In this document: positions 1 to 16,393 of the stretch, one piece after another | Numbering within the stretch: the stretch's first letter is position 1 | Layout: each line of letters starts with the position of its first letter | IMG/VR virus record: IMGVR_UViG_2913112809_000005 | Length of the DNA stretch: 16,976 bases | Source: a virus | Taxonomy: Duplodnaviria; Heunggongvirae; Uroviricota; Caudoviricetes | Strand: one strand, 5' to 3' | Notes under the pieces: generated by a model | The model's input: only the letters and a program-made list of their open reading frames with translations | Database searches by the model: none | What the model was told of the DNA's origin: nothing | Program-made: the position numbers and the translations under genes

Positions 1-1047
1 TCAATCAAACCAATTGCTAATTACAGTTTCAAACTTGTGAGTGACTTGCCACCATAAATAATTTTCCATGACAAATTGTTTTCCGTGATGGGCAACACTA
101 AGTAAATCAGGATTGTTAAGTGTTTTTTCTATATCCACAGCAATTGTTTCGGGTGTCATCGGTTCTTGCAGGTGATAGCCAGTATCTTTATCTTTTACAA
201 ATTCTATCATTCCACCTCGAGTACTCACCAGTACAGGTTTACCTGCGCTCATAGCTTCTATTGCCACCATACAAAATGGCTCCTGAAATTGAGATGGAAT
301 AACAACTAAATCAGCTAAAGAATAATATTGATGCATTTCCTCAGGAGTGACACCTCCTAACATATGGCAGTGTGAACCTGGTTGTTTTGCTAATTCTCGA
401 ATTTTCTGTTGGTAAATTCCTTTTTCACCCTTACTTTTGCTCGCATAATCTCCGATAACAACCAGTTCTATATCATCACGGGTTCTGATGAGTAGTTCAA
501 ACGCTTGTAGAAGTAACATCAATCCTTTTTCAGGAGATATCCTTCCCGCATAAAATATAATCTTCTTGTCAGGGGGGATGTTCAGATCAGATCTGTTTAT
601 TTTGGCATGGTGCTTGTCCGTATTATATGGATCTGTTCCATTTGGAACTATAGCGATATCTGCATCAGGAAGAAGCCTTTGATAATAGTCTTTTAAATAG
701 TTACTGGGGACGAGCATTTTGACATTGACATCCATTCCTTTTGGCTCATAAGCGTTATGCATATGCATCACTATTTTTGCATGAGGTGAACGCTCACGAA
801 TCTGGCGATATAATTTCATGCTATTATGCACAACGATTACACTGTTATCCGTAATATTGAAATCGTTAGCGACATTCAAAATTCGTTGAGAATAAGGAAA
901 GGGATCTATACGCGTCAATTTCTGAAATATGCGTTTATAAATTCGACCGAATCCGATGCGATGAATTGAACATCGTTCACTGACAGTGGTGATATCAGAA
1001 TAACCTTCTTCTTTTATACAAACAATTCTATTCGGTATTCTTGTCAT
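1..1047 (-). CDS. Glycosyltransferase, GT-B fold, family 4 (group 1 glycosyltransferase); complete 348-aa ORF
   Basis: 348-aa ORF with stop at 1-3. C-terminal half has the E-x7-E signature of retaining GT4 enzymes (EPFCMVAIEAMSAGKPVL) and a GT-B nucleotide-sugar-binding layout. Gene is visibly AT-rich compared with the adjacent tail cluster. Confidence 0.75.
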   Translation of the reverse strand: MTRIPNRIVCIKEEGYSDITTVSERCSIHRIGFGRIYKRIFQKLTRIDPFPYSQRILNVANDFNITDNSVIVVHNSMKLYRQIRERSPHAKIVMHMHNAYEPKGMDVNVKMLVPSNYLKDYYQRLLPDADIAIVPNGTDPYNTDKHHAKINRSDLNIPPDKKIIFYAGRISPEKGLMLLLQAFELLIRTRDDIELVVIGDYASKSKGEKGIYQQKIRELAKQPGSHCHMLGGVTPEEMHQYYSLADLVVIPSQFQEPFCMVAIEAMSAGKPVLVSTRGGMIEFVKDKDTGYHLQEPMTPETIAVDIEKTLNNPDLLSVAHHGKQFVMENYLWWQVTHKFETVISNWFD

Positions 1048-1492
1048 CTTAGCAACCTGATAAATCCAGGTTTCTACAGCAGCGGCGCAACGTGGAGGAA
1101 TGGAAAAAAATTGGCGTAACAGTGAAAATTATTTTATCAACCATGACGTATTATCCTTTCTTTTATTACCTTACTTTTCCAGAGGAGTGAGGCAGTAAAC
1201 ATGTGGTTTCCTCGCATCGTCTATGAGGGTACCCAAAGGACAAACTATATTTGAAGTGATTTATAACGCAATATATTTATGTTTAAAAATCGCTTCTTAT
1301 TCTTCACGTGAATGTTTTGTTTGGGATAATATTTTTTATAAATACGTTATAGCCTAATTATAAATAGCCAAGCGGAATAGTTCTCCATTTTCGGTCAGCC
1401 CTTTCGGGGTAAGGCGCAGAGGCCATTCTCTCTGTCTGACCGTGCTTGCATCGGGGAGGTGTACATATAAGCTATTTAGAGTATATAAGGAA

Positions 1493-1509
1493 CCGGGCAT
1501 TGTGCCCGG
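1493..1509 (-). terminator. Intrinsic terminator hairpin closing the tail operon
   Basis: Perfect 7-bp GC-rich inverted repeat CCGGGCA-ttg-TGCCCGG, 6 nt downstream (minus strand) of the TAA stop at 1516-1518, followed on the minus strand by a pyrimidine/U-rich stretch (TTCCTTATATACTC). Confidence 0.55.
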
Positions 1510-1515
1510 TGTTAT

Positions 1516-1971
1516 TTACGGATGGGATTGCCAGCTACTTACTAAGGCATACAAGTGATTTGGTGAGTATCGCCAGCTATCTTTTAATTGCAGGAATTCA
1601 GCACAAAACTCACTGCAAAACAGGCGATCGCGCTGTTCTTTATTGCCGGTGATAATTCCTAAGGCTCCGCGCCAGTCATAGCGTTTGCCATCATGTTTAC
1701 GGAAAAAAGCTTCCACATCCTGAAGATTGGCCTGGAGCGGTAGCATATCCCACTTGTCTGGAGGTAATGGCATTATCTTTCCCCGAACGCCTCGATCGCG
1801 CAGAGATGCGGAGTAACAAAGGTAACTCTTTTCGCCATGTACTACGGCTAATTCACAGTGGGAATAACTACCACGTGTGATTTTGCGTGTAAGCCAGTCA
1901 GCCAGTCTCGCAATACCCCGGTGCTCTGTTCGGCCCTTATAACAAGCGAGCCAGACAGTGGTTTTACTCAT
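1516..1971 (-). CDS. YiiX/YaeF-family (DUF830) permuted papain-fold protein, putative amidase/peptidase; no signal peptide
   Basis: 151-aa ORF translationally coupled to the upstream fibre-chaperone gene (4-nt overlap). Has the His-then-Cys permuted order with motifs SYSHCELAV, GKRYDWRGA and LFCSEFCAEF, matching from memory the YSH, KPYDF and CSE motifs of E. coli YiiX/YaeF. Last gene before the operon terminator. Confidence 0.55.
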   Translation of the reverse strand: MSKTTVWLACYKGRTEHRGIARLADWLTRKITRGSYSHCELAVVHGEKSYLCYSASLRDRGVRGKIMPLPPDKWDMLPLQANLQDVEAFFRKHDGKRYDWRGALGIITGNKEQRDRLFCSEFCAEFLQLKDSWRYSPNHLYALVSSWQSHP

Positions 1972-2577: not shown

Positions 2578-4131
2578 TCACCATGATATTTTTACAAAGC
2601 CATCTGAGCCGCGTCCGCCGGAAAAAGATGCTGATGTTTGATTATTTGCTGCACTACCACCAGCACCACCGGCACCATAACCAACGGCATTACCTCCGTT
2701 AGAAAGGGCTAAACCAATCCCCCCTAGGCCATATAGTGAATTCATTCCATTCCCACCAGGAGCAGAGTGTTGGTCAACCATGGTATTCCCACTACCGTTT
2801 CCACCTGTTCCCCCGTAAGCTACGCTGTCAGCAAATGATGAGTTCCCGCCTTGCATGCCATCTGAGGCATGAACATTCCAAAGAATACCTCCAGTTGATC
2901 CCATCTTTGATTCTAATTTTCCCCCTTGACCACCTACACCTCCCGCTCCGACAGTGACAGCGTAATTTGTTCCTGGAATGACTGTGACTATTGATAATTT
3001 TGTTTCTCCGCATTGACCGCCAAAACCCTGCGTACTATATGGAAAACCAGAGTTGCCTTTTGCGTATCCACCGCCACCGCCACCGCCTCCGCCACCGAGC
3101 ATTTCTATAAAAAGTAAGGACACCCCATCAGGAACAGTAAACGTTCCATTGGTGGTAAAGAACTGGATGTGAGAATTCGTTGACCTACTATATGCAGCAT
3201 TAGCCTTATCTATTGCCGCCTTCACCGCGCTCGGTGTCGCCGCCTCCGTCGTACTGTTGCTATCCGTCGCGTTATTAAGCTTCACAATCCCTTTTTGTGT
3301 CAGGGTACCATCCGGAACACCCGTAATCTGTCCCCAGGGATGCGTATGACTACCCGCAGCTTTACTATTCGCCAGGTCATACGCCGCCTTAACCGCGCTC
3401 GGTGTTGCCGCCTCTGTCGTGCTGTTGCTATTGGTTGCGTTATTAAGCTTCACAATCCCTTTTTGCGTCAGCGTACTATCTGGTATATCAGTAATCTGAC
3501 TCCAGGTATGACGATGATTTCGAGCCTCAATCATTGCCGCTTTCACCGCTTTTGGCGTAGCCGCTTTGGTTTCGTCATCACTGTCAGTGGCGTTACTCAA
3601 CTGTGTAAAGCCTTTTTGCGTTAACGTAGCATCAGGATGATTAGTCGAACGCTCATGTTCATCCAGTTGTGAATCAACATAATCCCGTGTTGCCAGTACA
3701 ATACTGGGGTCAACGGTGAGTGTTACCGCAGCCGTGTTGGACACTTCCATAATGAGACGAATGCAAACTTGCTTACCGCAGCCGCCGGGTAATAGCGGTT
3801 TATACGATTCCGGGAATTTACCGATAGCGATCAATTCACCATCAGTATCATAAACGCCAACTTCACGTACATACCAGCCGCCGATATTTTCGGGCAGCAC
3901 GAGTTCCGCAATTAACCAGTTAGGGTTATTTGGTGCAACTGTTAATGTATTTAAATCACCGCGCCATACTTCATGGCGTAATTTAGTTTGGCTGACGGTG
4001 GGTTCATAATATTGTCCTCCGCTGTCGCCAACAGCCATTTTTTGTAGATGAAGCTGTTTTTTATCCGCCAGAGCATTGGCAATTTTTGCCATTCCCCTGT
4101 CGGTGAGTAGAGTATAAAACTCATTATCCAT
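2578..4131 (-). CDS. Tail fibre protein (P2 gpH-like N-terminal baseplate-attachment domain, tandem fibre repeats, glycine-rich C-terminal tip)
   Basis: 517-aa ORF. N-terminus (MAVGDSGGQYYEP...HEVWRGDL...IAELVLPENIGGWYVREVGVYD...ESYKP) matches the conserved P2 gpH / Mu S N-terminal domain. Three tandem repeats of TLTQKG(I/F)..L.NAT.S...EAATP.AVKAA follow. C-terminal about 180 aa is extremely Gly-rich, including a run of 10 Gly. Confidence 0.85.
   Translation of the reverse strand: MDNEFYTLLTDRGMAKIANALADKKQLHLQKMAVGDSGGQYYEPTVSQTKLRHEVWRGDLNTLTVAPNNPNWLIAELVLPENIGGWYVREVGVYDTDGELIAIGKFPESYKPLLPGGCGKQVCIRLIMEVSNTAAVTLTVDPSIVLATRDYVDSQLDEHERSTNHPDATLTQKGFTQLSNATDSDDETKAATPKAVKAAMIEARNHRHTWSQITDIPDSTLTQKGIVKLNNATNSNSTTEAATPSAVKAAYDLANSKAAGSHTHPWGQITGVPDGTLTQKGIVKLNNATDSNSTTEAATPSAVKAAIDKANAAYSRSTNSHIQFFTTNGTFTVPDGVSLLFIEMLGGGGGGGGGGYAKGNSGFPYSTQGFGGQCGETKLSIVTVIPGTNYAVTVGAGGVGGQGGKLESKMGSTGGILWNVHASDGMQGGNSSFADSVAYGGTGGNGSGNTMVDQHSAPGGNGMNSLYGLGGIGLALSNGGNAVGYGAGGAGGSAANNQTSASFSGGRGSDGFVKISW
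3068..3097 (-). repeat. Imperfect hexanucleotide (GGTGGC/CCGCCA)n tract encoding a Gly10 run inside the tail fibre gene
   Basis: Plus strand reads ccaccgccaccgccaccgcctccgccaccg; on the coding strand this is GGT GGC GGA GGC GGT GGC GGT GGC GGT GGA. Confidence 0.8.
3185..3640 (-). repeat. Three tandem, diverged 150-170 bp repeats inside the tail fibre gene (phage tail-fibre repeat units)
   Basis: Near-identical DNA blocks are visible (e.g. ccgcgctcggtgtcgccgcctccgtcgt...ttattaagcttcacaatccctttttgtgtcag versus ccgcgctcggtgttgccgcctctgtcgt...ttattaagcttcacaatccctttttgcgtcag). The protein shows three copies of the TLTQKG...EAATPSAVKAA unit. Confidence 0.8.
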
Positions 4132-4133
4132 AA

Positions 4134-4781
4134 TTACTCCGGGTAAATAGATGTAATTTCAAGGCTCCATTGCCCTGTTCCGTAATAAATCGATGTGTTG
4201 TGCTGTACTTCCCGTATCTGGAAAGGTAAAACCGTCGTCAGTTCACCACCATAAAGTGCACAGCCAATAACAGGAATAGCACTTTGGTTAATGATCCAGA
4301 CGATTAATGCTTCCAGTTTTGAACGTGTGTTTTTATATTCATGAATGAGTTCTACCAAATCATTGAAAAGGTTTTCATCCATACCTTTATCCACCAGCTC
4401 TATATCCACCTTAAAAAAATAAGCCCTTCCCCCATATTCAAACCATTCTGAAATAGTTCCGGGTAATGAGAGTATTTCCAGCACCCGCCGCACCGCCCAA
4501 ATTGTTCCTTTATATTTATGCAGTTCAATGGCTTGTTTAATTAACTCGCGTTTCTCCCGCTCATCGGTGGTAAATAACCAACCTTCCAGCCCCTGAACGT
4601 GAAATTGTTCTGCAAGGGCTGGTAATGCCGAAGCATCAACCAGGTCGACCAGATAAACCATCAACGCCGTCAGATCGAGTTGGGCAAAACGCTCGGCGGC
4701 GATGTTTGCCAGAATGGAAAAACGCTCATCGCTGGCAAGCGGCGGCGGTGGCAGCAATTTATCCATCGCTGACTCCGGCAA
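4134..4781 (-). CDS. Baseplate protein, P2 gpI family (Mu gp48-like)
   Basis: 215-aa ORF with the characteristic N-terminal LLPPP..S....LA motif of gpI-family proteins; sits between gpJ and the tail fibre. True start may be the internal Met at about 4766 (MDKLLPPPP), which would remove the overlap with gpJ. Confidence 0.8.
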   Translation of the reverse strand: MPESAMDKLLPPPPLASDERFSILANIAAERFAQLDLTALMVYLVDLVDASALPALAEQFHVQGLEGWLFTTDEREKRELIKQAIELHKYKGTIWAVRRVLEILSLPGTISEWFEYGGRAYFFKVDIELVDKGMDENLFNDLVELIHEYKNTRSKLEALIVWIINQSAIPVIGCALYGGELTTVLPFQIREVQHNTSIYYGTGQWSLEITSIYPE

Positions 4782-5874
4782 TCGTGACGTCTATTGCGGT
4801 GCATTCCGCCCACTCATGCGCCTGCAAAATACGTTTTGTAGGCATATTCAGCGCAACGTCATAGACGCCATCGACCTGTAACACTTTGATTATCTGGTTT
4901 GGCACAATGTCCTGCCCCAGATGTTTCTGCCGCTGTTGCGTCCAGAGGCTAATCGCTTTACGCGCCGCAGCCAGCGTTGTCTCCTGATCGGCGGTGGTAA
5001 ACAGCATTAGCTGCGCACGGATCTCATACGGCACTCGAAGAGCGCATTTCGCACTCACTTTGTCGGTCAGCGGACGTTTTTTCTCCTTGCTAACCTCCTG
5101 TTCAATTTGCGCGAGCAGTTCCACTCCCGGCAGACCATTCAGCGTTAGCGGGTAGATCTCCACGCAGCCTTCTGGCAATCCCTCGTCCGGCCCCAGTACT
5201 GAAACGTCAATAATCGACTGGCTAACAGAAAGCGTATGGAAGCGGTATGCGCCATAGCTGCCCGCATTACTAAAGCTTTCTGGTGCCAGTTGGATACGCT
5301 GGCGCAATGCGTCATCGCTCTCTTCACCGCAGCCGCCCGTTGACGCAGTCAGGTTGGTTACGTTGATGTCATAATGACCAATCCTGTCGACCAGTGCGCT
5401 AATTTGTGCAGGCTGCCAGCCGTTACCCTGTTCACCTGCTGCGAGGCTGGTGGCAGGAACGGCGATATGCAAACTCCTGGCCGGAAGCAGAACATCTTCA
5501 TCGGTGGCGAACATCACGCTATCAGAGGCACTGGCCCGCGTCCCCTGGGGAATCAGGATATTGCTGGTATACGCACTGACGACCGAAAACTGCAACGTCG
5601 TTTTTGCCGGTTGTGCAGGCAAACGGTGAACGCCCACCAGCTCCCCTAAATAATCCAGCATTGGCGCGCGGGAATACGCGACCAGGTTTTGTTTCGCCGC
5701 TTCCTGAATGGCGATGCGTACAAGGTTTTCACGATAGGCAAACAGGTCGATGAGCAACCGCTCAGCCTGTGCAGGATAGAGTTTTTTACCGCTGGCATCT
5801 TCGTATTGCGCAATCATCTCACTGGTAATTTGCGCTGGATCGCGGTCAATAAAATTGGGTTCGGCTATCGCCAT
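4759..5874 (-). CDS. Baseplate protein, gpJ family (Mu gp47-like, T4 gp6-like wedge)
   Basis: 371-aa ORF in the conserved position between gpW and gpI; size and order match Baseplate_J proteins; overlaps both neighbours in the operon. Confidence 0.8.
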   Translation of the reverse strand: MAIAEPNFIDRDPAQITSEMIAQYEDASGKKLYPAQAERLLIDLFAYRENLVRIAIQEAAKQNLVAYSRAPMLDYLGELVGVHRLPAQPAKTTLQFSVVSAYTSNILIPQGTRASASDSVMFATDEDVLLPARSLHIAVPATSLAAGEQGNGWQPAQISALVDRIGHYDINVTNLTASTGGCGEESDDALRQRIQLAPESFSNAGSYGAYRFHTLSVSQSIIDVSVLGPDEGLPEGCVEIYPLTLNGLPGVELLAQIEQEVSKEKKRPLTDKVSAKCALRVPYEIRAQLMLFTTADQETTLAAARKAISLWTQQRQKHLGQDIVPNQIIKVLQVDGVYDVALNMPTKRILQAHEWAECTAIDVTIAGVSDG

Positions 5875-6224
5875 AACACCTCCGTTGAGTTGATTACGCC
5901 GTCAGCGGCGCGCCATTGCACACGTAACGTCAGATGTTCACCGTCGATTACAGGTGTCACCTTCAGCAACCGACAGCGCGGTTCCCACTGGCGAATGGCT
6001 TCCACCGACTCCCGTACCACATGCGGGATTGCCCGCTCGATGGGGTAATCGATGTAGTGCCACAAATTGCTGCCAAACAGCGGTCTGTGGGGATCACTGC
6101 CGCGCGGTGTACGCAGAATGATGTGTATTGCCTGGTGAATATCATCCAGTCCGCAGACGTATTTTTCAGGCCGCTGCAAGGCCGGTTGCCAGTGCAGCGT
6201 TGAGGGTCGTGTTTTTGTGTTCAT
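5865..6224 (-). CDS. Baseplate protein, GPW/gp25 family
   Basis: 119-aa ORF of the size and position of P2 gpW / T4 gp25 / Mu gp46 homologues, between the spike and gpJ. Confidence 0.75.
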   Translation of the reverse strand: MNTKTRPSTLHWQPALQRPEKYVCGLDDIHQAIHIILRTPRGSDPHRPLFGSNLWHYIDYPIERAIPHVVRESVEAIRQWEPRCRLLKVTPVIDGEHLTLRVQWRAADGVINSTEVLWR

Positions 6225-6297
6225 GAGGGTATTTTCGCCCTGAACGGGCTGCGGGGATATTAAAGCGATTTAGAAAACTGATTGATTAAAAAGAGAA

Positions 6298-6317
6298 AAC
6301 CCGCCATCAGGCGGGTT
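6298..6317 (-). terminator. Intrinsic terminator/attenuator between gpV and gpW
   Basis: 8-bp GC-rich stem AACCCGCC-tgat-GGCGGGTT, 5 nt downstream (minus strand) of the gpV TGA stop at 6323-6325, followed on the minus strand by TTCTCTTTTTAATCAATCAGTTTTCT. Confidence 0.6.
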
Positions 6318-6322
6318 AAACG

Positions 6323-7024
6323 TCAGTGTGAATGGTGGTTGGAGTTGCCACCGCTGTCCTGCAATGCGCCGCTGGCCTGAACGTTGCCGATCACGTTGAC
6401 ATTGCCAGTTATTGTGGCGGCGTTACCGATGCCTCCACTTCCTGCCATCCCGCCAAGCCAGGTGAGTTTTTTCATTACCGTCACGTTACCAGTAAAGGTG
6501 CTCATGGGCGCATCTACCGTCACTGCTGCCGCTTTAACATCGACCTTAGTGGCGTCGATGCTGACATCGGTCGCTTTAACATCGACAGTATCGGAAGTCA
6601 CGATGACCTGTTGGGCTTTAATCTCAACGTTGGGCGATGTCAGGCTGGTACGGTCGATAACCTCAATCACGATTTTCTCGATACCGCCGTTAATCGTCAG
6701 CTGGTGCGTGCTGCGGTCATATTCAAACGCTGCGCCATCAGAAAACTGGACGTAACGTTTATCGCGCGAGGCCACAGGCGCGGTGTCAACCGTAGAATAA
6801 ACTGCGCCCAGCACCACGCCATCTTCACCGTTATTGTCCAGCAGAACTTCCACTTGCTCGCCCATATCCGGTAGCCAGTAGTCTTTATTGTCCTGGGAAT
6901 TGCGTTGAAGTACCGCAAGCCAGTTGCTCTTCAGATTGTCACACTCCGGAAGCGTGACTCGCACCCGAACGCTGGTTTCGTCAATATCGCTGATAATCCC
7001 CGTTTGCCGGGTTACTCCTTTCAT
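6323..7024 (-). CDS. Baseplate central spike, gpV family (Mu gp45-like), with His-rich C-terminal tip
   Basis: 233-aa ORF with an N-terminal OB-fold-like region and a C-terminal repetitive beta-helix-like segment (VDVKATDVSIDATKVDVKAAAVTVDA), ending ...GGNSNHHSH. AGGAGG RBS 7-12 nt upstream. Confidence 0.8.
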   Translation of the reverse strand: MKGVTRQTGIISDIDETSVRVRVTLPECDNLKSNWLAVLQRNSQDNKDYWLPDMGEQVEVLLDNNGEDGVVLGAVYSTVDTAPVASRDKRYVQFSDGAAFEYDRSTHQLTINGGIEKIVIEVIDRTSLTSPNVEIKAQQVIVTSDTVDVKATDVSIDATKVDVKAAAVTVDAPMSTFTGNVTVMKKLTWLGGMAGSGGIGNAATITGNVNVIGNVQASGALQDSGGNSNHHSH

Positions 7025-7033
7025 ATTTCCTCC

Positions 7034-8074
7034 TTACTGGCTGGTCGCTGGCCCGCGCGACACGTCGATTTCAGTGGTATAGCCGCTGCGCACAAAACTG
7101 TGAGTCGATTTATCAATCAGCCACTGACCGGAAAGCACGCCAAAATCGGTCAGTTCAATTTTATTGCCCGCCGTCAGATCCGGGCAGCCCATCATTGTGA
7201 GCGTTCCGGTTTGCTGATATTCGTTGTGGCTGTCGAGTGCAGCGTTGGCCTTTGCCTGTGCTGCGCCAACGTCCGTCGCCCGACTGTTCAGTTTTAGCGT
7301 GTCGGCACTGGTGCCGACTCCACGGGCAGACGGTTTTTGCTGGCTGTCGTGAGTGTAGATAACCAGTTCTTTTTTCTTACTATTTTGATGCTGTACGGTG
7401 GCGTTTTTGTAGATACGGTTAATGGTATCTTTGAAGGTGAAATGCGAAACGTCTTTGCGGTTGATCTTTTTAACCGACGCCAGGCAGCGCAGCGTGGGTA
7501 AATGCGAAAAAATCAGCTCTTTGGTGCTCACCTTTACTGCATAGCCATATTCGCAGGCCAGGCGCTTGAGAAATCCAACATCGGTTTCGCCGTACTGTGT
7601 CACCCGGTCAATCGTCAGCGGCTCGATTTTGCCCACCAGCTTTAGGCCGTGAGTTTGTGCGATACGGCTGGCGATAGCCGAAAGCGTCGTTTCTTCAAAA
7701 CCCTGGCTGTTACGGGTGCGCAGCGCCTGATTGACGGAAGTGGCGATGCCATCAATATTTACCGTAGAAGGTGGCGCTGAAATGTCGATTTTATCAATAA
7801 TATACTGACCACAATCGAGCAGCTTTTCCCCCTGATAACCCATATGCAGCGCCAGCGTATCGCCTTTGCCGGGATACCACTCTTTTATCCAGCGTCCATC
7901 AGTGTCATCCAGTGTAATTGCGATGGTATCTGACTCGTTTTTGATGCTGTCGTGGTAACTGATGCTGGTGACATAGGGTGTGATGTCATAAGTGATATCT
8001 TTATGCCCATACCAGAGGGTAAAAATGGGCGTGAGTGTGGCAAAGACGCCACCAGTTACGCTTATCTCAGCCAT
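7034..8074 (-). CDS. Baseplate hub protein, P2 gpD family (late control gene D protein; Mu gp44-like)
   Basis: 346-aa ORF of the size and position of gpD/gp27-like hub proteins, directly before the spike. Confidence 0.8.
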   Translation of the reverse strand: MAEISVTGGVFATLTPIFTLWYGHKDITYDITPYVTSISYHDSIKNESDTIAITLDDTDGRWIKEWYPGKGDTLALHMGYQGEKLLDCGQYIIDKIDISAPPSTVNIDGIATSVNQALRTRNSQGFEETTLSAIASRIAQTHGLKLVGKIEPLTIDRVTQYGETDVGFLKRLACEYGYAVKVSTKELIFSHLPTLRCLASVKKINRKDVSHFTFKDTINRIYKNATVQHQNSKKKELVIYTHDSQQKPSARGVGTSADTLKLNSRATDVGAAQAKANAALDSHNEYQQTGTLTMMGCPDLTAGNKIELTDFGVLSGQWLIDKSTHSFVRSGYTTEIDVSRGPATSQ

Positions 8075-8274
8075 GGTGGGATCTCCGATAAGGTTTTATT
8101 GACGGAAATGACCGGAATAATGAGCTGAATACCGGAAGGCAGCACCGGGTAAATGGCGACATGTGGATTGGCGGCGATTATGCGTTCATAAGCCAGCGCA
8201 TCACCGTAGTAATGCCATGCCAGATTATCCCAGCGTTCGCTGTCGGTGGTGATATGTTCAAGGTATCGCATCAC
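8062..8274 (-). CDS. Tail protein X (P2 gpX family, LysM-like)
   Basis: 70-aa ORF containing the conserved gpX motif (WD.LA..YYGD....E.II.ANP); ATGA-type overlap with the upstream gpU-like gene. Confidence 0.75.
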   Translation of the reverse strand: MMRYLEHITTDSERWDNLAWHYYGDALAYERIIAANPHVAIYPVLPSGIQLIIPVISVNKTLSEIPPWLR

Positions 8275-9224
8275 CAGCTCCTCGTAATGGTCGCGGCAGC
8301 AAACTGGCTCACTGTGGGAGTGGTTTGTTGTACCGTTGTTCGTGCCTGATCAACCAACGTTGCGGCTTTATCGAACGTCGCTTGGGCGATGCCGCTGGTA
8401 ATGTCGTCGAAAAGCGCCTGAGCATGGTCAACCAGCGTACTGGCGTCATTGGCGCAGTCCCGGATACCTGGCATGTTACCCAGTAAAGCTTTAATCTGCG
8501 CCGACAACGCTTTTGGGAGTCCTGCCAGCGTTTGCAGATCCGTTGGCTGTTTAAACAGGGTTTCGATGGCGTCGATTGTCTTTTTCAATGACGTAATTAT
8601 CTTTTCACACTTTTCTTTTAACGCTTTGGCCTCTTTAATCATTGCTTTCACTTTTGCCACCGTTTTTTTAATATCTTCAATGGCTTGTGTCAGTTCATCC
8701 AGCATCTCTTTGGCCTTACGCATACCTTCTTCAATGGCGTTTAATATCTGATCAAACCAGGACTCCACCATGTCGGGAAAATTGCTCGCCTTTTCCTCAA
8801 TGTTAGGCTCCTGGGTGGTAATCGCCGGAGGTAAAAGTGGATTTTTAGGATCGCCGGTGTACTCCTGGAGCGACATCGTTCCGTTTTGGGCAATCACATT
8901 GCCCCAGGGATCGGTGTGCTGGTGGGTGGCGGTTAGCTCTGTAATTACAAACCAGCCGCGATAATCGCCATTGCCAAATACCAGTGCCATCGCCTTGTGA
9001 GCAAGCATGGCTTCACGCAGTCGATTCAGCTCTGTTGTGGGCTGGCAAAACTGGCTGTGCAGGGAAAATTCCAGCGCCAGTATATCCAGCTTATCGCCAA
9101 TAAACTGCACGCCGGGCTTGCCTTCTATACGGGCATGTGTGGCGTAATCCACGCCCATTGTGCTTTTAAAGCCGTCCCAGAATGTGACAACCTTAAATTC
9201 AATCTCTCCTAAAACGGCATACAT
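8271..9224 (-). CDS. gpU-like tail protein with a roughly 175-aa C-terminal alpha-helical/coiled-coil extension
   Basis: 317-aa ORF. First about 140 aa follow the P2 gpU pattern (M..LG...F......F..........G.P..QF.G...D...L...L......L..L...........G.G...G.FVITEL). The remainder is Lys/Glu/Ala-rich with heptad-like periodicity (KAKEMLDELTQAIEDIKKTVAKVKAMIKEAKALKEKCEKI...). Stop/start overlaps the tape measure gene. Confidence 0.7.
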   Translation of the reverse strand: MYAVLGEIEFKVVTFWDGFKSTMGVDYATHARIEGKPGVQFIGDKLDILALEFSLHSQFCQPTTELNRLREAMLAHKAMALVFGNGDYRGWFVITELTATHQHTDPWGNVIAQNGTMSLQEYTGDPKNPLLPPAITTQEPNIEEKASNFPDMVESWFDQILNAIEEGMRKAKEMLDELTQAIEDIKKTVAKVKAMIKEAKALKEKCEKIITSLKKTIDAIETLFKQPTDLQTLAGLPKALSAQIKALLGNMPGIRDCANDASTLVDHAQALFDDITSGIAQATFDKAATLVDQARTTVQQTTPTVSQFAAATITRSW

Positions 9225-11584
9225 CAGGCATACCCCCGGCGCTGTTGTTGCGCCATTACGTCGTTAATTATTCTTTCCAGTTCGCGTTTACTCATCGTCA
9301 ACACGTTCTGAATCTCTTTAGTATTGTTTGGTCCGTTACCCTGCACGGTAATCTGTGGCGAAAAAGTCACCTGGACTTTTCCAGGGGAACGGGAGGGTAG
9401 CGTCGCCGGTTTGGTTACGGATTTATCTGGTAAAGAGGTCGACGCGAGTTTTGCGGCAGGCACTGATGACGGCGTTGTCGTTTTGCTGGATGGCGCGAGT
9501 TGTTTCCCCACTGGAGGCGTTAAAATCGCACCGGCAACGCCTGGAACAACGGTCGCGGGGGAGACTGAGGCAGAATTAGTGGTGCCTGTAGCAGCCGCAG
9601 CCGATCCTTCTGTGCTGATACCCATTGTGGATTTTAGCCAGTCTGGTATGGCGTTTTTGACCTGGTCAATAATGCCTTTCAGAGCGGGAAAAGCATTCAT
9701 TATGCCGTCAGCCAGGCTACCCAGTATATTGCTGCCGAACTCGCTAAAACTCGCAGGCATCTCAACACCAAACCAATTCATCACTCCGGCAAAGGCGCTG
9801 TAGAACAGCCCCAGTGGCGACCAGTCGCAAATCAAACGGCTAATACCAGCAATACCGCCATTAAAGGCCGTTGTGATACGCAGCCAGATGGCGGAAAAGA
9901 ACCTGGAGATAGGTTCCCAGTTGCGATAAATCAGATAAGCAGCGCCCGCAATCGCAGTGATGACCAGACCAATGGGATTCATCAATAACACCCGGCCTAG
10001 CGAGAGAACGGTTCGACCAACCAGTTTCAATGCTCCGAGCAGGCTACGACCAAGCAGTTGCGTTAGCCATTTTGCGCCGCCACCCAATGACTTAACCGCC
10101 GATAACACCTTACTCGCTGCGCCGCCGAGCGCCAGACTTGCCCTGACTTTCAGGAAGATATCGACCAGACGAATTAACGGCGAGGCGATGAAGTTCGCGC
10201 CCAGCTTTAAAACATTCAGCGCGCCGTTAAACAGCCAAATCGCCCCGACGATTTTCGCAATGTTTTGCACCAGCGCCGGGTGTTCACGTAGCCATGCGCT
10301 GAACTGGCGAACAACCGGAGTAAGGCTTTGCGCCAGCTCGCCAATCAGCGGCATTAATTGCAAGCCAATGCTGAGCCATAAATCATTTAACGCCAGCTGT
10401 AACGCTTTAGTTTGTTCAATGGGCGAGGCCATCTGCGCAGAAAAGTCAGCGTCAATCAGATTCTTACTGCTGGCTTGCATGGCAGAGGCTTTTAACTGGC
10501 GATATTCCTCCATATTCGCCAGCACAGGTGCCAGGAATTCCACTGTTTGCGCATCGCCGAACATTTCGCCCAGATTAAACTGCGTCACCATCGATTGCAG
10601 CGCAGTGCTGCGAGCAGATAAATCTTCAATCTTCATGGTGCGTTTGAAGGTGTCGAGGATCGCCGGATTCATCTTCTCAAGCTGCATTTGCACGATATGA
10701 GTCATGGCTTCGCTAACACCCATACCGTTTTGCTGATGCTCAAGCAGAGAACCTTGCAGATCAACGCCCTGGCTGGCGAACCAGTTATCGGTTTTTTTCG
10801 AAAAGGTGGTTTGCAGAAAGTGGTCGAAATTCTCCGCCGCCGCACTGGCACTGGCCCCGTTTTTTATGGCGATCTGCATGGTGGCGGTCAGTTCAGCCAT
10901 ACCTTCCAGACCCTGAGCGCCGATTTTACCTGCAAATTTCTCTATCCACTGCGTTTGTTCGGCAACGGCAGGCCCACCGCTTTTGCTAATGCCATACATC
11001 ATGTTTTGCGCGGCGTGGAAATTTTCTGGGGCAATATTCAGTCGATCATGAGTCGCGAGCGCGGCATTCGCCCACGTTTCAGCACTTTCGCGCGTGGCGG
11101 TGGCAGCTTTGGCGATCTCCGGCATATAACGGTTGAGATCCTGCATCGACGACAAATTGCCTTCGATCAGCGTTTGGGCTGCGTTCTGTAAGGTGGTCTG
11201 CTGCTGGTTAAAATCCATGCTCCAGCCGCGCAGATTAAGGCTGAGCGTCTCGCGGGTTGTAGCATTCATCCCACCTTTGGTCGCCATATTGACCATGTTG
11301 TCCTGGAACTCATATGGCAACTTCCAGTCGGGGGCTTCAACATTGAATACCTTGCTAAATTGCCCGGCAAATGTTTGGGTTTTCTCCATTAGATCAGCGC
11401 GGTTCCGGCTATTTTCCTCCAGGCGGAGAGCAGAATCGGCAAGTTGCTGCGTTAGTTTGATTACTGTCGCTTGCTGAGAAGAGAGAGCTAACAAAGTTCT
11501 GGCGTTGAGTGAGCCGTAACGGGCTATTGCCTGCGTCAACGTCTCATTACGCGCCTGAAGCTGGGTAATAATATCGTTGGCCAA
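9224..11584 (-). CDS. Tail tape measure protein
   Basis: 786-aa ORF, largely alpha-helical with internal hydrophobic segments, between the chaperone gene and gpU as in all long-tailed phages. Apparent initiator is TTG at 11584; the first in-frame ATG is about 66 codons in, so the exact start is uncertain. Confidence 0.85.
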   Translation of the reverse strand: MANDIITQLQARNETLTQAIARYGSLNARTLLALSSQQATVIKLTQQLADSALRLEENSRNRADLMEKTQTFAGQFSKVFNVEAPDWKLPYEFQDNMVNMATKGGMNATTRETLSLNLRGWSMDFNQQQTTLQNAAQTLIEGNLSSMQDLNRYMPEIAKAATATRESAETWANAALATHDRLNIAPENFHAAQNMMYGISKSGGPAVAEQTQWIEKFAGKIGAQGLEGMAELTATMQIAIKNGASASAAAENFDHFLQTTFSKKTDNWFASQGVDLQGSLLEHQQNGMGVSEAMTHIVQMQLEKMNPAILDTFKRTMKIEDLSARSTALQSMVTQFNLGEMFGDAQTVEFLAPVLANMEEYRQLKASAMQASSKNLIDADFSAQMASPIEQTKALQLALNDLWLSIGLQLMPLIGELAQSLTPVVRQFSAWLREHPALVQNIAKIVGAIWLFNGALNVLKLGANFIASPLIRLVDIFLKVRASLALGGAASKVLSAVKSLGGGAKWLTQLLGRSLLGALKLVGRTVLSLGRVLLMNPIGLVITAIAGAAYLIYRNWEPISRFFSAIWLRITTAFNGGIAGISRLICDWSPLGLFYSAFAGVMNWFGVEMPASFSEFGSNILGSLADGIMNAFPALKGIIDQVKNAIPDWLKSTMGISTEGSAAAATGTTNSASVSPATVVPGVAGAILTPPVGKQLAPSSKTTTPSSVPAAKLASTSLPDKSVTKPATLPSRSPGKVQVTFSPQITVQGNGPNNTKEIQNVLTMSKRELERIINDVMAQQQRRGYA

Positions 11585-11675
11585 AATTGTTTCTCTTTAA
11601 TTATTGATAATGGCCCACTGGTTATTTTTCTAAAAAAGGGGCTGGGAAGAAATAAACCTGGCGGGCTTTGAAGAA

Positions 11676-11698
11676 CTCGCAGACATCAGGTCTGCGAG
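11676..11698 (-). other. Strong stem-loop in the gpE-tape measure intergenic region
   Basis: Perfect 9-bp inverted repeat CTCGCAGAC-atcag-GTCTGCGAG; on the minus strand it encloses the stop codon (11686-11688) of the +1 frame that overlaps the 3' end of the gpE gene. Confidence 0.6.
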
Positions 11699-11773
11699 CC
11701 ATATTCGATCTTTATTTGGTCGCTGGCTTCATCCAGCCAGTTGCTAAAGTCATCTATGGTGAGCGCGTCTATC

Positions 11774-12091
11774 TCACTGGGTGGAAAGCGAAACCATCTC
11801 GCCAGTAGCGCCATTGCCTGCCATAGCTGGGGAGGATTCTGTAACCACGGTAAGCATGGATTGAAATCGTTTCTGCAATGCCTGGTAATCCAGCAAATCC
11901 ATTTCAGCTAAATCTTCTGGCACCAGTCCGGTCATCGCCGCCATTAGCGGTTCATCCCACTCTTCGGGTTTTTCGCTGATCCGGCGCGCGTTGCGCATAT
12001 CTTTTACTTTCAGGCGACGTAATTGCAGCGAGTCGATAGTATTTCCTGCTGCCGACGTAAATGGGAACTGTAAGATATAATGCTCTTTCAT
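11774..12091 (-). CDS. Tail assembly chaperone, P2 gpE family
   Basis: 105-aa acidic ORF between the tube and tape measure genes, the conserved position of the frameshifted chaperone pair. An alternative reading frame stays open past its stop (see findings). Confidence 0.7.
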   Translation of the reverse strand: MKEHYILQFPFTSAAGNTIDSLQLRRLKVKDMRNARRISEKPEEWDEPLMAAMTGLVPEDLAEMDLLDYQALQKRFQSMLTVVTESSPAMAGNGATGEMVSLSTQ

Positions 12092-12117
12092 TTTGTATCC
12101 TTATTTATGTTGCGAAG

Positions 12118-12137
12118 TTCGGGGCCGTAGCCCCGAA
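12118..12137 (-). other. Stem-loop immediately downstream of the tail tube gene
   Basis: 8-bp GC-rich inverted repeat TTCGGGGC-cgta-GCCCCGAA between the tube stop (12141-12143) and the gpE start (12091); no clear U-tract follows, so more likely an mRNA-processing/stability or partial-attenuation element than a full terminator. Confidence 0.45.
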
Positions 12138-12140
12138 TAA

Positions 12141-12665
12141 TTAGCCACCGATGTTATTGCGATAGGTACTTAATTGATCCACGCCGTTAACCCGAAAAAT
12201 ATTCGCCATATAATCAAGTTCAAGCAGCGTTTCACCATCGACCACTTGCTTAATATAAGTACAGCCAAAGGCGCTGCTGAATTCCGGGTTTTCATTCTGT
12301 TTAAATGTGCCCAGTGGATTCTTTTTAAACATCACGGTTAAATGTGTCACTAACGCTAATTGATTCGCTTTCCCCTGGGAGTTATAGCAATCAATACTGG
12401 AGCGGCACTGTAATGCTACCGCCTGCCACGGGTTTGCCGTTTTACGCATTACGTCCTGATAAAAGGAGTTCCATTTAATTTCCCCCTCCAGTTTATCGAA
12501 ACCAGCCGGGAGTTCGATTTTGCCGACCATACCCAGTGCCTTATGCTCTTGCATAATTAAACTGACATCAGGCAATTTAATTTCGGTTGCACGACCTAAA
12601 AGGTTATTACCATCGAGATAAATATTGGCGTTGGTAATACGGTTAATTTGAATTTTTCCAGCCAT
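12141..12665 (-). CDS. Tail tube protein (P2 FII family)
   Basis: 174-aa ORF; size and N-terminal pattern (N.N.YLDG...LG...EIKLP) match FII-type tube proteins; start overlaps the sheath stop. Confidence 0.8.
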   Translation of the reverse strand: MAGKIQINRITNANIYLDGNNLLGRATEIKLPDVSLIMQEHKALGMVGKIELPAGFDKLEGEIKWNSFYQDVMRKTANPWQAVALQCRSSIDCYNSQGKANQLALVTHLTVMFKKNPLGTFKQNENPEFSSAFGCTYIKQVVDGETLLELDYMANIFRVNGVDQLSTYRNNIGG

Positions 12666-14095
12666 TAGCTATTGCTCTCCAGAGAGACTAAATATTCAGA
12701 AGTAATTTCAGTTTCAAACGTCAGACGTTCCAGCGGCGGCGGCGGGGTGAATTTATAGCTCAGCAATAAATGACCGGCGCTGAGTTCAGCCGGTGAATTT
12801 CGTGCCGGATCGTACCAGCACTCAAAGCCAAGCAGTGCGCCGTCGGCAATTAGTTTTCGGCCCCAGGTATTTACCGATTCGGTCAGTGCGTCAATAATTG
12901 CCTGATTAATAGGCATATCAATATACTGCTGACTGAAATAACGGATTGACTCATTGATTACATCGCCTGTCCGGCGGACGTTTTCAAAGTTACGCATATG
13001 GGTCACGGTAGGCCATGCCGCTGTGCGGTTACCCCACAAGCGCAGACCAGAACCGTAACTATTGAAAATAGTGGTAATGCCGTTTTCGTTGAGCTGATTC
13101 ACTTCGCTTTGTGGATCATCAATCATTGCGGAAAGCGAACGTTCAATACCGGTAATACCCTGAATTTCCTGGTTTGAGTTGCTCCACCAGAAACCTTTTT
13201 CGAGGTCTACTTTGGCACGTAGCCCGGCAGCGCGCGAAGAGAGTGGTTCGAGAACTTCCTGGTTAGTGATGCCATCGTAAACTTTGACGTGTGGGTAACA
13301 TAAACGCACACGATCAGAGCTGGTATTGAAGTTGATAGCCCCTTGCGAACCGCGTCCAGCCAATACCTGCTGGAATGTCGTCCCAATCGGAGCATCAATG
13401 TAGGTAATCGCACCGAGTTTTTCCGCTTGTGCAATCAGCTCAGTAGTTACTGATTTTTGCGTACAAAACACGGGAGCAAGCAGGATTTTGGCGTAGAAAC
13501 CGTACAGGTTATAGGTGTCCTGAAGGAGTTTCATCCCCGTGCGGTCGCCTGCGGTATTTAGGGCACCGATAATATCGGCTGCGGTGACCTTTGTAGGGTC
13601 GCACCAGGAATAATAGGCGCAAACTTTCGCTCCAGGAGGAATGTCGGCTCCTTTACGAGTGATTATGCCTGTTTGTTCATCTACGCTAAATGCTGTGGTG
13701 TTAAAGGTTGATGAATTTGATGAAGAGGGCTTTAGTACCACGTTACGCACATTGCGGTGAGCGAGCTTCGCCTGGTTGTTAGCATCAAAAGTGATACTCT
13801 CATTGCTGATGCTGGAGCTATGTTTTGCCGGATCCAGCACGTTAATCACCACCACCGTACCGGCACCGTGGTCATAAATCGCCTTCAGTGCCTGTGGGAT
13901 CGTAAAGTTAGCCAGAGTCGAGCCAAACTGCGCAGCATCGCTTTCAGAAAGACATAATGTTGGTTTATTTACCGGACCACAGGGGGCCGTACCGATTAAA
14001 GCGATGACGGCGGATTTTACCGCTTTAACCGGACGAGGGCCGGTTTCAATTTCAATGGTTTCTACACCGTGCAGGTAATTAGCTGCCATGTACAA
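12665..14095 (-). CDS. Contractile tail sheath protein
   Basis: 476-aa ORF directly upstream of the tube gene; size and position are typical of myovirus sheath proteins (P2 FI / Mu L class). Confidence 0.85.
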   Translation of the reverse strand: MYMAANYLHGVETIEIETGPRPVKAVKSAVIALIGTAPCGPVNKPTLCLSESDAAQFGSTLANFTIPQALKAIYDHGAGTVVVINVLDPAKHSSSISNESITFDANNQAKLAHRNVRNVVLKPSSSNSSTFNTTAFSVDEQTGIITRKGADIPPGAKVCAYYSWCDPTKVTAADIIGALNTAGDRTGMKLLQDTYNLYGFYAKILLAPVFCTQKSVTTELIAQAEKLGAITYIDAPIGTTFQQVLAGRGSQGAINFNTSSDRVRLCYPHVKVYDGITNQEVLEPLSSRAAGLRAKVDLEKGFWWSNSNQEIQGITGIERSLSAMIDDPQSEVNQLNENGITTIFNSYGSGLRLWGNRTAAWPTVTHMRNFENVRRTGDVINESIRYFSQQYIDMPINQAIIDALTESVNTWGRKLIADGALLGFECWYDPARNSPAELSAGHLLLSYKFTPPPPLERLTFETEITSEYLVSLESNS

Positions 14096-14276
14096 TTTCC
14101 TCTACGTTATTTTGTTCTTCCTGAGTGATGACAGGAGTCAGATGATTGCGGGCAATCATGGTTATGACCCACTCGTTGTCTTCTGGCAGATCAATTTCAC
14201 TGTTCGGCCACAATAAGATTTCTTGTCCGTCGGCAAGGGTGACGCCGCTTGCCGGGCCGTTGTAGATGTATTTCAT
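14079..14276 (-). CDS. Small conserved tail-region protein (Mu gp38-like position)
   Basis: 65-aa ORF, coupled by a 4-nt overlap to the upstream gene and overlapping the sheath start. Confidence 0.45.
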   Translation of the reverse strand: MKYIYNGPASGVTLADGQEILLWPNSEIDLPEDNEWVITMIARNHLTPVITQEEQNNVEEIVHGS

Positions 14277-14728
14277 TCAGTTTCCTCGTAATTAACTTCC
14301 GTAAGCAGGGGAAGATCCGTGCTTTCCTGTTCAGCGATAAACAGCGAGCTGGTCGCCATTTCCAGGATGTAGCGGCAGAAACCGCCGCTCTCACCCGTAT
14401 TAATTTCTTTTTCAAGCCAAAGCAGACGATCGCAATCAGGAAGCTGAAGGCCACCCAATGCTCTGCGTATGCGATCAAGAGCGTTTAACGCGTCACAATT
14501 TTTGCCAACAATAACGGTGGCGGTTAAGCGGAGTATTTGCTGTTGCACGATGGCATCACTGCTTTCGGGCGTGGCAAAGAAAGAACCGCTATAATTAATA
14601 ATCACTGCAACTTGCTGTGTCTGTGGAATATATTTCTGGGCATCCGTAGCTGAAATAAATACGTCCATTTCGGGGTTGTGTTCACGTAATCTGGTCACAA
14701 CAGAATTCATTACAGATAAAATTTCCAT
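14273..14728 (-). CDS. Putative tail completion/terminator-type protein (Mu gp37 / DUF1834-like); first gene of the tail operon
   Basis: 151-aa ORF with an AGG-containing RBS upstream; position and N-terminal pattern (ME.L..M...VV.RL) recall Mu gp37-family proteins. Functional call is tentative. Confidence 0.45.
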   Translation of the reverse strand: MEILSVMNSVVTRLREHNPEMDVFISATDAQKYIPQTQQVAVIINYSGSFFATPESSDAIVQQQILRLTATVIVGKNCDALNALDRIRRALGGLQLPDCDRLLWLEKEINTGESGGFCRYILEMATSSLFIAEQESTDLPLLTEVNYEETE

Positions 14729-14842
14729 ATGGGTTGTACCTTAATTACCGCTCACTTCGTTATCGTTGAAATATATTCTGAAGCAGTGAAGGTGAAGAAT
14801 CTTTTAATGTAATTTAGAGAAAAAATTGAATGGCTATAAAAA

Positions 14843-14870
14843 ATCCCCACACTTACGTAAAGGTGGGGAT
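14843..14870 (-). terminator. Intrinsic terminator after the lysis cassette (potentially bidirectional)
   Basis: 8-bp stem ATCCCCAC...GTGGGGAT with an internally palindromic loop, beginning 4 nt after the TAA stop at 14875-14877; followed on the minus strand by TTTTTATAGCC and on the plus strand by GTATTTAATA. Confidence 0.7.
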
Positions 14871-14874
14871 GTAT

Positions 14875-15189
14875 TTAATAGCTGCCACGTTGTAACAGCT
14901 CGATTTTGCTATATAAGGCATCCAGCTTTGCTTCTAATACTGCTTGCCCACGAAGATAATCTTCTCTGCGGACATAATGCAGCGGAAGCTCGGCACGAAA
15001 TTCAAGAAACTCTCTTTCCAGTTTCGACCAACTTGTTTCTGATTCCCTGCGGGCATTTTCCAGAGACTCAAAACGCTCATTAAGTCGTTTTTCAATTTGC
15101 GCTAACAGCAGTTTTCCGGCAGCAAACATTAATCCAACGAAGGAAAGCATAAGGGAGATCACTTCCCAAAAATCGATACTGAGTTTCAT
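14875..15189 (-). CDS. Membrane-anchored coiled-coil protein, candidate spanin-like/lysis accessory protein
   Basis: 104-aa ORF with one N-terminal hydrophobic helix (FWEVISLMLSFVGLMFAAGKLLL) followed by a charged helical region; GAGGGG RBS; directly downstream of the lysin gene. Confidence 0.45.
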   Translation of the reverse strand: MKLSIDFWEVISLMLSFVGLMFAAGKLLLAQIEKRLNERFESLENARRESETSWSKLEREFLEFRAELPLHYVRREDYLRGQAVLEAKLDALYSKIELLQRGSY

Positions 15190-15201
15190 CGGCCCCTCTG
15201 A

Positions 15202-15807
15202 TTAGTGAAGACAGCTTGCCTGTCCCCAGAGTAAATAGCGGGCGGCGTGTAGATAGAGGATCATCTTTGGATAGCGACGATTTTCTCGCCAGTTAGCAGC
15301 GCTGCGCCCGGCGTTGACTCGCTCGACATGACCAAACCAGCTAGTGGCATCTAACCCTTTGGATGCAGCTAGTTTTTTATCCCGGTTAACCCACCCCTGA
15401 CCGCCGTTATAGGCGCTTAGGGTAAACGCCATACGCTGACAGTCATTTTTCGCAGAGATGTTTTTCCACAAATGCTGGTCATATTGCACCAGCGCGCGAA
15501 TCGCCCAGGTTGGGTTATACGGTTTGTTTTCACGCAATTGTGGATACAACTGGCTTATCCATGTCGCTGTAGCAGGCATAAATTGCGCCATACCTTGTGC
15601 GCCAACGGGGGAACGTACCATTGGCTGCCAGGCGGACTCCAGGTGTAATTGCCCGGCAAAGTCGGCCACTGGGGCATTCAGCCCCCAGACTTCTCGAGCG
15701 GTACGAATTAGTTCGTTTCGCCATGCCAGAGAGGCTCGCGGCGGTTCAGAGGCGTTAAGCGGGAAAAGAACGAAAATAATCATAGACGCGATATATTTCA
15801 GCCACAT
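15202..15807 (-). CDS. Lytic transglycosylase (SLT domain) lysin with N-terminal signal/SAR-like hydrophobic leader
   Basis: SLT catalytic motifs LHLESAWQP and AQGMAQFMP. Best start is ATG at 15807 (MWLKYIASMIIFVLFPLNA...), 2 nt after the stop of the upstream membrane-protein gene; the longer ORF to 15885 would overlap that gene by 76 nt. Confidence 0.7.
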   Translation of the reverse strand: MWLKYIASMIIFVLFPLNASEPPRASLAWRNELIRTAREVWGLNAPVADFAGQLHLESAWQPMVRSPVGAQGMAQFMPATATWISQLYPQLRENKPYNPTWAIRALVQYDQHLWKNISAKNDCQRMAFTLSAYNGGQGWVNRDKKLAASKGLDATSWFGHVERVNAGRSAANWRENRRYPKMILYLHAARYLLWGQASCLH

Positions 15808-15809
15808 CA

Positions 15810-16097
15810 CTATAGCCCTAAGGCGACGGAAAGACAGACGGCGGCAACGATGATGGCGCGGCGAATCATTGCCGCCGCGCAGCAACGCGGTTCCTTCCAG
15901 GGGCTAAAAGAGTCAGGCCGTGCCCAGGGGAACAAACTGCGATCGAGCCAGTATCCCAGCACCGCGGAAAGCGAAACCAGGCTTAGTTTATAAATGACGA
16001 CCGGGATCTGTGCTGAAGAGGTCCAGCCGATCACGACAAACAGCGCGACGGAAGCGACCAGCCAGCCGGAAAGCCGGGGAAAAGTGACTTTTTTCAT
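15810..16097 (-). CDS. Small membrane protein with 2-3 transmembrane segments, holin candidate
   Basis: 95-aa ORF with AGGAG RBS 8 nt upstream of the ATG; hydrophobic segments LVASVALFVVIGW, IPVVIYKLSLVSLSAVLGYWL and AIIVAAVCLSVALGL; first gene of the lysis cassette, directly before the lysin. Confidence 0.5.
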   Translation of the reverse strand: MKKVTFPRLSGWLVASVALFVVIGWTSSAQIPVVIYKLSLVSLSAVLGYWLDRSLFPWARPDSFSPWKEPRCCAAAMIRRAIIVAAVCLSVALGL

Positions 16098-16393
16098 ACG
16101 ATATCTCCTGATAAGTGAGCGTTTAGTGTCGTCAGAACCCTCCAGTGAAGAATGAAAAAAGCTTTAATAAATAAGTTTAAAAAATAGATTCTCTATAAAT
16201 GAACAAGCCCGCTAATAAATCGACTCATCAATTAAAGAGCAAAAGGTGACCTGGCGAATAAGCGCGTCATTATGCAGGGGAAAGATGATGGTGGATCGTA
16301 GGAATAGTCTATAGTTATTTGATTTTTAAAGTTTGTTTAAGAAAGTCAGCTACTGTGAGGGAAACGATCTTTTAACACTACAGGTAAAAATAA

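Follow-up and report, generated by a model that had tools for sequence, protein, structure and literature searches.

Fibre tips decide which strains are attacked by a phage or a tailocin, and the locus described here raises the question of how such a tip is changed. The window, by which we mean the whole stretch of 16,976 nucleotides (nt) analysed from IMG/VR record IMGVR_UViG_2913112809_000005, carries a tail-fibre gene that an earlier, sequence-only reading had described as a chimera. In that description, a conserved baseplate-attachment N-terminus is joined to three tandem repeats and to a glycine-rich C-terminal tip, in which a run of ten glycines (Gly10) could lengthen or shorten by slippage. 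In our view, the gene very probably specifies the fibre with which a contractile tail of the Mu/P2-like kind binds its receptor; in Escherichia sp. E4742, this tail would be encoded by a tail-only, R-type-tailocin-like cluster, and the fibre would consist of three modules and vary by cassette exchange.

The open reading frame (ORF) is real and lies on the minus strand; its coordinates and those of the other features are collected in Table 1. Its 517-amino-acid (aa) product is 100% identical to QCT87842.1/WP_135523506.1 from Escherichia sp. E4742, an unclassified Escherichia strain of a cryptic clade. The Pfam architecture is PF12571 (Phage_tail_fib, aa 1-150, E 7e-61), followed by three repeats of PF03406 (Phage_fiber_2, E 4e-55) and by PF21722 (Gly_rich_2, aa 326-511). 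The last of these scored 28.6 bits, against a curated Pfam cut-off of 24.3 bits, and covered profile positions 1-219 of 226. The N-terminus proposed for baseplate attachment is thus the PF12571 domain, and it shares 95-99% aa identity with relatives from E. coli and the cryptic clades. PF12571, PF03406 and the position after the gpJ-gpI baseplate genes together place the protein among the P2/Mu-type tail fibres, and the gpI-type protein encoded next to it is probably its docking partner. All three domain families are already in Pfam, and the fibre is a modular protein of a known kind.

As the sequence-only reading had noted, the C-terminal domain is rich in glycine. Residues 321-517 are 28.9% Gly, match PF21722 and carry, besides the one Gly10 run, some 10 to 12 short Gly-rich motifs. 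A word-indexed search with the tip alone gave 7 matches, probably because of low complexity, and an exhaustive HMMER search with the last 213 aa gave 304 relatives, the nearest cluster representative being 54% identical. When a profile of 53 homologs was compared with the PDB, it matched Pam3 gp24 (7YPX, E 4e-16; 7YFW, E 4.1e-15) and mycobacteriophage Bxb1 gp33 (9D93, E 1.8e-7). Foldseek with the tip model returned the same set (Pam3 gp24 and Bxb1 gp33) at probability 1.0, and the predicted fold superposes on the solved Pam3 gp24-type tip. By profile and model comparison, then, the tip is a fibre tip of the Pfam PF21722/Pam3 gp24 type, in which a tumour necrosis factor (TNF)-like domain carries a glycine-rich one. 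The predicted fold is one known from receptor-binding fibre tips and not an unrelated one.

The solved tip tells us what the parts of the window tip may do. Pam3 has a TNF-like beta-sandwich with six loops, whose 12 glycine-rich motifs form a lattice of four layers; GGGGxGG occurs in the central loops L1 and L6, the distal loop ends are hypervariable and were proposed as the receptor site, and a separate chaperone, gp25, holds the tip while it folds (PMC9608196). In a gp24-like Klebsiella phage fibre, TFP_Y, host-range mutations fall in the glycine-rich domain, and the protein interacts with lipopolysaccharide (LPS) (PMC12671077). We aligned tips from nine lineages at this locus and found the Gly-rich motifs and their flanking beta-strands to be invariant or nearly so, the near-invariant motifs being FTxNGTFxVPxGV, VTVGAGG, GGxSxF, GYGAGGxGG and GFVKISW. 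Insertions, deletions and substitutions concentrate between the Gly motifs, at about aa 356-368, 403-423, 446-455 and 493-503, and these segments coincide with blocks of the model that have a lower predicted local distance difference test (pLDDT) score. Of the aligned tips, that of E4742 has the shortest loops (221 aa past the last repeat motif versus 229-256). By analogy, the tip is predicted to be the receptor-binding domain, with the distal loops as its contact surface and LPS as a possible receptor, and homology to Pam3 suggests a polyglycine-II backbone with lattice packing.

We compared the fibre with orthologs at the common locus in Escherichia and Salmonella, namely, the 608-aa fibre of E. 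coli S10 (WP_001402746.1) and Salmonella fibres of 581 and 641 aa. Their N-termini are 95-99% identical to that of the window fibre at the aa level, and they share with it the repeat family, the PF21722 tip family, a first Gly tract of 10 residues and an FVKISW-type ending. They differ in having 4 or 5 repeats instead of 3, and their tips are only about 43-45% identical, with other variable loops. From position 4900 down to about 3205, nucleotide identity to S10 is 97-100% in most 100-nt blocks and 88-96% in a few; it falls to 36-63% in the tip, stands at 52-79% in the first half of the following gene, which encodes a DUF4376 protein, and is again about 95% over 1900-2100. Megablast matches to E. 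coli end at about 3214. At the protein level, identity to S10 is 98% for fibre aa 1-305, 45% for the tip, 36% for the N half of the DUF4376 protein, 89% for its C half and 94% for the 151-aa ORF beyond it.

Compared with a cryptic-clade locus that has the same tip (L008), the pattern is reversed: 595 of the 600 nt of the tip agree (99%), as against about 93% identity over the N-terminus and repeats. A backbone about 98% identical to S10 until about 3205, with the drop in the tip, and the same tip on another backbone elsewhere justify the word "chimeric" in the sequence-only reading. Such an identity pattern carries the signature of horizontal exchange of a cassette made of the tip and its partner, and the alignments point to two putative recombination anchors for the swap, namely, the last repeat and that half of the DUF4376 gene which is conserved. 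The E4742 tip variant is rare. It has 8 cluster members, no complete E. coli genome in the collection covers it, and it occurs in none of the 4 loci matched among the species-representative genomes. In the phage collection, the matches were one 6-kb Salmonella record and one Salmonella genome record, and a viral contig scan with the single protein found one IMG/VR contig with the same tip.

Between the N-terminal domain and the tip, the three tandem repeats of the sequence-only reading were recovered by Pfam. The near-identical DNA blocks of about 120 bp that it also reported were not borne out, as units 2 and 3 alone are similar (84% DNA identity over 135 nt, with a period of 168 nt or 56 aa). 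Unit 1 is far more diverged, and the mean column identity in a three-way alignment is 74%. The repeat unit matches residues 109-164 of Mu fibre protein S (PDB 5YVQ). Copy number is not invariant, since the fibres of relatives have 3, 4 or 5 units. In a base-level alignment with S10, the window fibre lacks exactly one 168-nt unit, and the junction of this one-unit deletion sits within the conserved AAAGGGATTGTGAAG/CTTAATAACGC core. An exact 168-nt difference is the outcome expected from unequal recombination between repeats, and the alignment supports that origin. The repeats form the shaft and serve as a recombination substrate, in line with the suggestion in the sequence-only reading that they could recombine and alter fibre length.

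Taken together, we propose the following model. The conserved N-terminal domain would dock the fibre onto the gpI/gpJ baseplate, and the shaft of 56-aa Phage_fiber_2 repeats would change its copy number by unequal homologous recombination. In the Pam3 gp24-type tip, the conserved Gly-rich motifs would probably pack as a polyglycine-II-like lattice, with Gly10 as a strand of fixed length, and the variable loops between the Gly motifs would make up the distal face that meets the receptor. Recombination at two places, the last conserved repeat and the conserved C half of the DUF4376 gene, would replace the tip and, with it, the first half of the DUF4376 gene, the presumed chaperone gene, so that target specificity would be altered by cassette exchange rather than by slippage.

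The fibre gene stands in a long run of tail genes. Upstream of it and on the same strand are gpI, gpJ, gpW, gpV, gpD, X, gpU, tape measure, tube and sheath genes; beyond these P2/Mu-type tail genes lie Gp37, an SLT transglycosylase and a holin, with a divergent Mor activator at the right end of the window. Over its 12 kb, the tail region has 97% identity to a cluster found in 197 of 5426 complete E. coli genomes, i.e., about 4%, and the cluster is common in Salmonella. The whole cluster is listed as window positions 4134-16976, alongside positions 11433-27192 of another locus (L007). Salmonella fibres of this family with 581 aa (e.g., P0227 and P0261) are very abundant, with hundreds of contigs each, and which type of tip a Salmonella fibre has follows the serovar name. 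STM4200, annotated as a "putative phage tail fibre" and used as an S. Typhimurium-specific target for the polymerase chain reaction, may be the ortholog.

The most serious alternative is that the fibre belongs to an ordinary, possibly defective prophage, in which it would serve phage adsorption and not bacteriocin-like killing. All genes are indeed phage-derived (the Mu/P2-type tail, the Mor activator, the holin and the transglycosylase), a 16.3-kb contig with the same tip is listed as viral in IMG/VR, and our literature search found no tailocin described at this locus and no tailocin activity documented for it. However, the orthologous cluster of E. coli D6, which runs from Mor to the 151-aa ORF between lysC and yjbD/rluF, holds regulator, lysis and tail genes only, with no head, integrase or replication genes. 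Judged on the D6 locus, this is the gene content of an R-type tailocin, i.e., tail and lysis genes in the absence of head, replication and integration genes. Moreover, the cluster is intact, at the same chromosomal site and 95-99% identical in 191 complete genomes, which is typical of a domesticated tailocin and not of a decaying remnant. We therefore regard the prophage explanation as unlikely.

On its gene content, the cluster looks like a tail-only, R-type-tailocin-like element, and we infer that it may produce killing particles. It is quite possible, though rather less likely than not, that the cluster is an active, so far uncharacterised R-type tailocin of Escherichia and Salmonella. Its strain-level killing spectrum would be set by exchange of TNF-like plus glycine-rich (TG) tip cassettes. 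With its shortest loops and three repeats, the E4742 tip would then represent a rare specificity variant that horizontal transfer has brought to both cryptic-clade Escherichia and E. coli. A published "tailocin" of ST131 concerns an ST131-specific, pyocin-R2-like prophage region; the paper mentions no landmark of this locus, and we make no link to it.

Several points weigh against the proposal of a tailocin-like cluster with an exchangeable receptor-binding tip. The window stops inside Mor, and the absence of head genes was read from the orthologous E. coli loci. Our literature search found no experimental report of particles, killing or a receptor for this locus. The polyglycine-II geometry is a prediction carried over from Pam3 by homology, and the model is a monomer, silent on trimer packing. 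Finally, the DUF4376 N half of E. coli KK19-02 (L002, 4476-5081) is 83% identical to that of the window despite a tip identity of 43%, which means that the tip and the presumed chaperone do not strictly covary.

The sequence-only reading had compared the tip to the polyglycine tips of T-even gp38-type adhesins, and a stronger form of this idea is that the tip is a gp38-type module that comes from, or belongs to, the Straboviridae gp38 family. The architectural half of the comparison holds through the Pam3-type fold. Like S16/T-even gp38 (PDB 6F45; Pfam GP38), the window tip would have a rigid scaffold of the polyglycine-II bundle type with variable segments that contact the receptor. The Pam3-type glycine-rich fold has itself been likened to the S16 gp38 polyglycine bundle (PMC9608196, PMC13243192), and a later paper grouped the Pam3, Bxb1 and S16 domains as polyproline-II-type bundles. 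Family membership did not hold. The Pfam scan (E<=1) gave no GP38, gp38 was absent from the structural matches, and we found neither a sequence match nor a top-ranking or whole-domain structural match between the window tip and S16 gp38. In addition, gp38 is a protein of its own, a monomer that caps gp37 and whose middle domain is a beta-helix, whereas the Gly-rich module of the window forms the C-terminal end of the 517-aa fibre chain itself and rests on a TNF-like jelly roll. Descent from the gp38 family, or membership in it, is thus very improbable, and we rejected it.

We then considered Gly10 as a contingency locus, in which in-frame hexanucleotide slippage would alter the tract length and hence the geometry or specificity of the tip. 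This is the expansion and contraction foreseen by the sequence-only reading, and the tract does look the part. Its codons are GGT GGC GGA GGC GGT GGC GGT GGC GGT GGA, and Tandem Repeats Finder (TRF) called a period-6 array at 3068-3097 (5.0 copies, 91% matches, score 53); the imperfect hexanucleotide repeat is therefore real, with the codons shifted by one base to 3067-3096. Five loci with the same tip (L008-L012) spell the tract as the still more perfect (GGTGGC)4GGTGGA, from which the window differs by one synonymous interruption (GGT to GGA), and the first pure-Gly run spans 6 to 10 residues in distant members of the family.

Despite these features, we observed no length polymorphism. The tract is 10 residues (G, A or S) in 123 of 123 close relatives from ten tip lineages, and differences among them are substitutions only, e.g., G9A, G6AGGA and G9S. 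All six distinct full-length proteins with the same tip, from at least 21 contigs, have 517 aa and G10, and the five loci with the more perfect array keep G10 as well. In other tip lineages, the Gly codons of the tract are mixed and form no hexamer repeat. In the profile alignment, the tract pairs with GGGGAGG of Pam3, which fits the GGGGxGG motif of the central loops L1/L6, so that the tract looks length-constrained and structural, and it is modelled at a pLDDT of about 98. Gly10 is probably the first, central polyglycine strand of the tip lattice. The simplest reading is that it is a length-constrained structural strand rather than a contingency repeat and that its hexamer periodicity is an incidental codon pattern. 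Slippage is very hard to reconcile with this constant length in the population, and we rejected it.

The weakest idea, that the Gly-rich C-terminus is a disordered low-complexity linker or an autoproteolytically removed intramolecular chaperone with no role in receptor binding, draws on the biased composition (29% Gly), on DSSP, which labels most of the tip model as "other", and on the many database entries truncated inside the domain, but we give it almost no credence: 147 of 213 residues are modelled at a pLDDT of at least 90, the homology is specifically to a tip whose folded structure has been solved, coil is what DSSP would be expected to report for polyglycine-II strands, the terminal beta-strand FVKISW is conserved and aligns with the last strand of Pam3 gp24, and the truncated entries are labelled partial, pointing to assembly breaks. 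The deposited relatives that are "partial" and end inside the Gly-rich domain (P0168, P0179, P0185-P0210 and others) suggest that short-read assemblies often break there, so that tip diversity is probably undersampled in drafts.

Among other known systems, the solved member of the tip family, Pam3 gp24 (PDB 7YPX, 7YFW) with its chaperone gp25, is joined by proteins that are more remote. The Pam3 tip was also said to resemble ALK (PMC9608196). ALK and LTK are metazoan cytokine receptors with a TG extracellular domain, and Bxb1 is a siphophage with TG domains on accessory tail proteins (gp33, the "tail wing brush", and gp29); the identity of these proteins to the window tip is just 23-29%, in partial alignments. 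In overall plan, the locus resembles the cassettes of R-type pyocins, P2 and Mu (Mu gpS plus Tfa, PDB 5YVQ). In these, the N-terminus that binds the baseplate is conserved, the C-terminal region that sets specificity can be exchanged, and a cognate assembly gene comes directly after the fibre gene. The locus differs from them in its glycine-rich TG tip and in having no invertible segment or alternative fibre genes. A search for a Mu G-segment style of inversion found no flanking inverted repeats, the sole pair being 17 nt and inside the DUF4376 gene, and no invertase or reverse-transcriptase gene was seen among the window ORFs scanned. Switching by an invertible segment was rejected as a candidate.

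The locus adds no new principle, as the domain family, the structure and the logic of cassette exchange had been described, and for the tip family there are solved structures as well as published work on function from other phages. Specific to this locus are a tip variant that is rare, a map on which the cassette boundaries stand out cleanly, the deletion of one repeat unit and good negative evidence on Gly slippage. It offers a natural map of where tips are cut and pasted (past the last repeat and midway in the downstream assembly gene) and of the parts that stay fixed (the 10-residue Gly strand and the other Gly motifs), which makes the locus a useful guide when tailocins or phages are to be engineered against Escherichia and Salmonella. 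The possible uncharacterised tailocin of these genera is the most interesting point around the locus.

Table 1. Features of the tail-fibre locus and the adjoining end of the cluster (window coordinates)
Feature	Position	Strand	Evidence or remark
Tail-fibre gene, 517 aa	2578..4131	minus	ORF and translation; Pfam architecture; exact database match
N-terminal baseplate-attachment domain, aa 1-150, PF12571	3682..4131	minus	Pfam, E 7e-61
Three tandem 56-aa (168-nt) Phage_fiber_2 units	3519-3686, 3351-3518, 3183-3350 (together 3183..3686)	minus	Pfam; DNA repeat; three-way alignment
Upstream mosaic junction, just past the AATPSAVKAA motif of the last repeat	3195..3215	minus	Megablast; sliding identity; base-level alignment
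C-terminal TNF-like plus glycine-rich tip, aa 320-517, 29% Gly	2581..3174	minus	Predicted receptor-binding domain
Gly10 tract, aa 346-355, imperfect (GGTGGC)n	3067..3096	minus	TRF; codons; Pam3 alignment; pLDDT; invariance
P2 gpI-type baseplate protein	4134..4781	minus	PF09684 Tail_P2_I; PHROG tail protein; directly upstream of the fibre gene
DUF4376 protein, 201 aa	1968..2573	minus	N half (about 2274-2573, GC content about 35%) variable, C half conserved
151-aa ORF, last gene of the cluster	1516..1971	minus	ORF; kept across relatives
GC-rich hairpin, end of the conserved cluster	1492..1510		Terminator-like scan

The DUF4376 gene directly follows the fibre gene. Those relatives of its product whose N-domain is of another kind carry PF02413 (Caudo_TAP), and in some sources they go by the name of tail-fibre assembly proteins; on this basis, the protein is probably a tail-fibre assembly chaperone. 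In its AlphaFold2 model (pLDDT 92.9), the N half is rich in beta-structure, and long helices come after it. A structure search with this model returned mainly generic helical hairpins, and sequence and profile searches of the PDB gave no match to the protein.

The 151-aa ORF follows the DUF4376 gene in all relatives examined and is 93-94% identical at the aa level across tip types. A Pfam scan gave no match to it. It has one strong match (E 6e-58), to a PHROG family labelled enoyl-CoA hydratase-like, a label that looks doubtful, and a second, unnamed PHROG family matches more weakly. Its sequence holds the Cys/His motifs SHCELAV and CSEFCAEF. Homology to E. coli starts at position 1493, and the left flank (1-1490) has a low GC content of 35-39%. 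It encodes a GT4 glycosyltransferase (1-1047, minus strand; PF00534, also PF20706, "GT4 in conflict systems"). At the same position, the loci of E. coli and of other cryptic-clade strains have a RlaP nucleotidyltransferase (plus slipin). The left flank looks like a variable island that abuts the end of the cluster.

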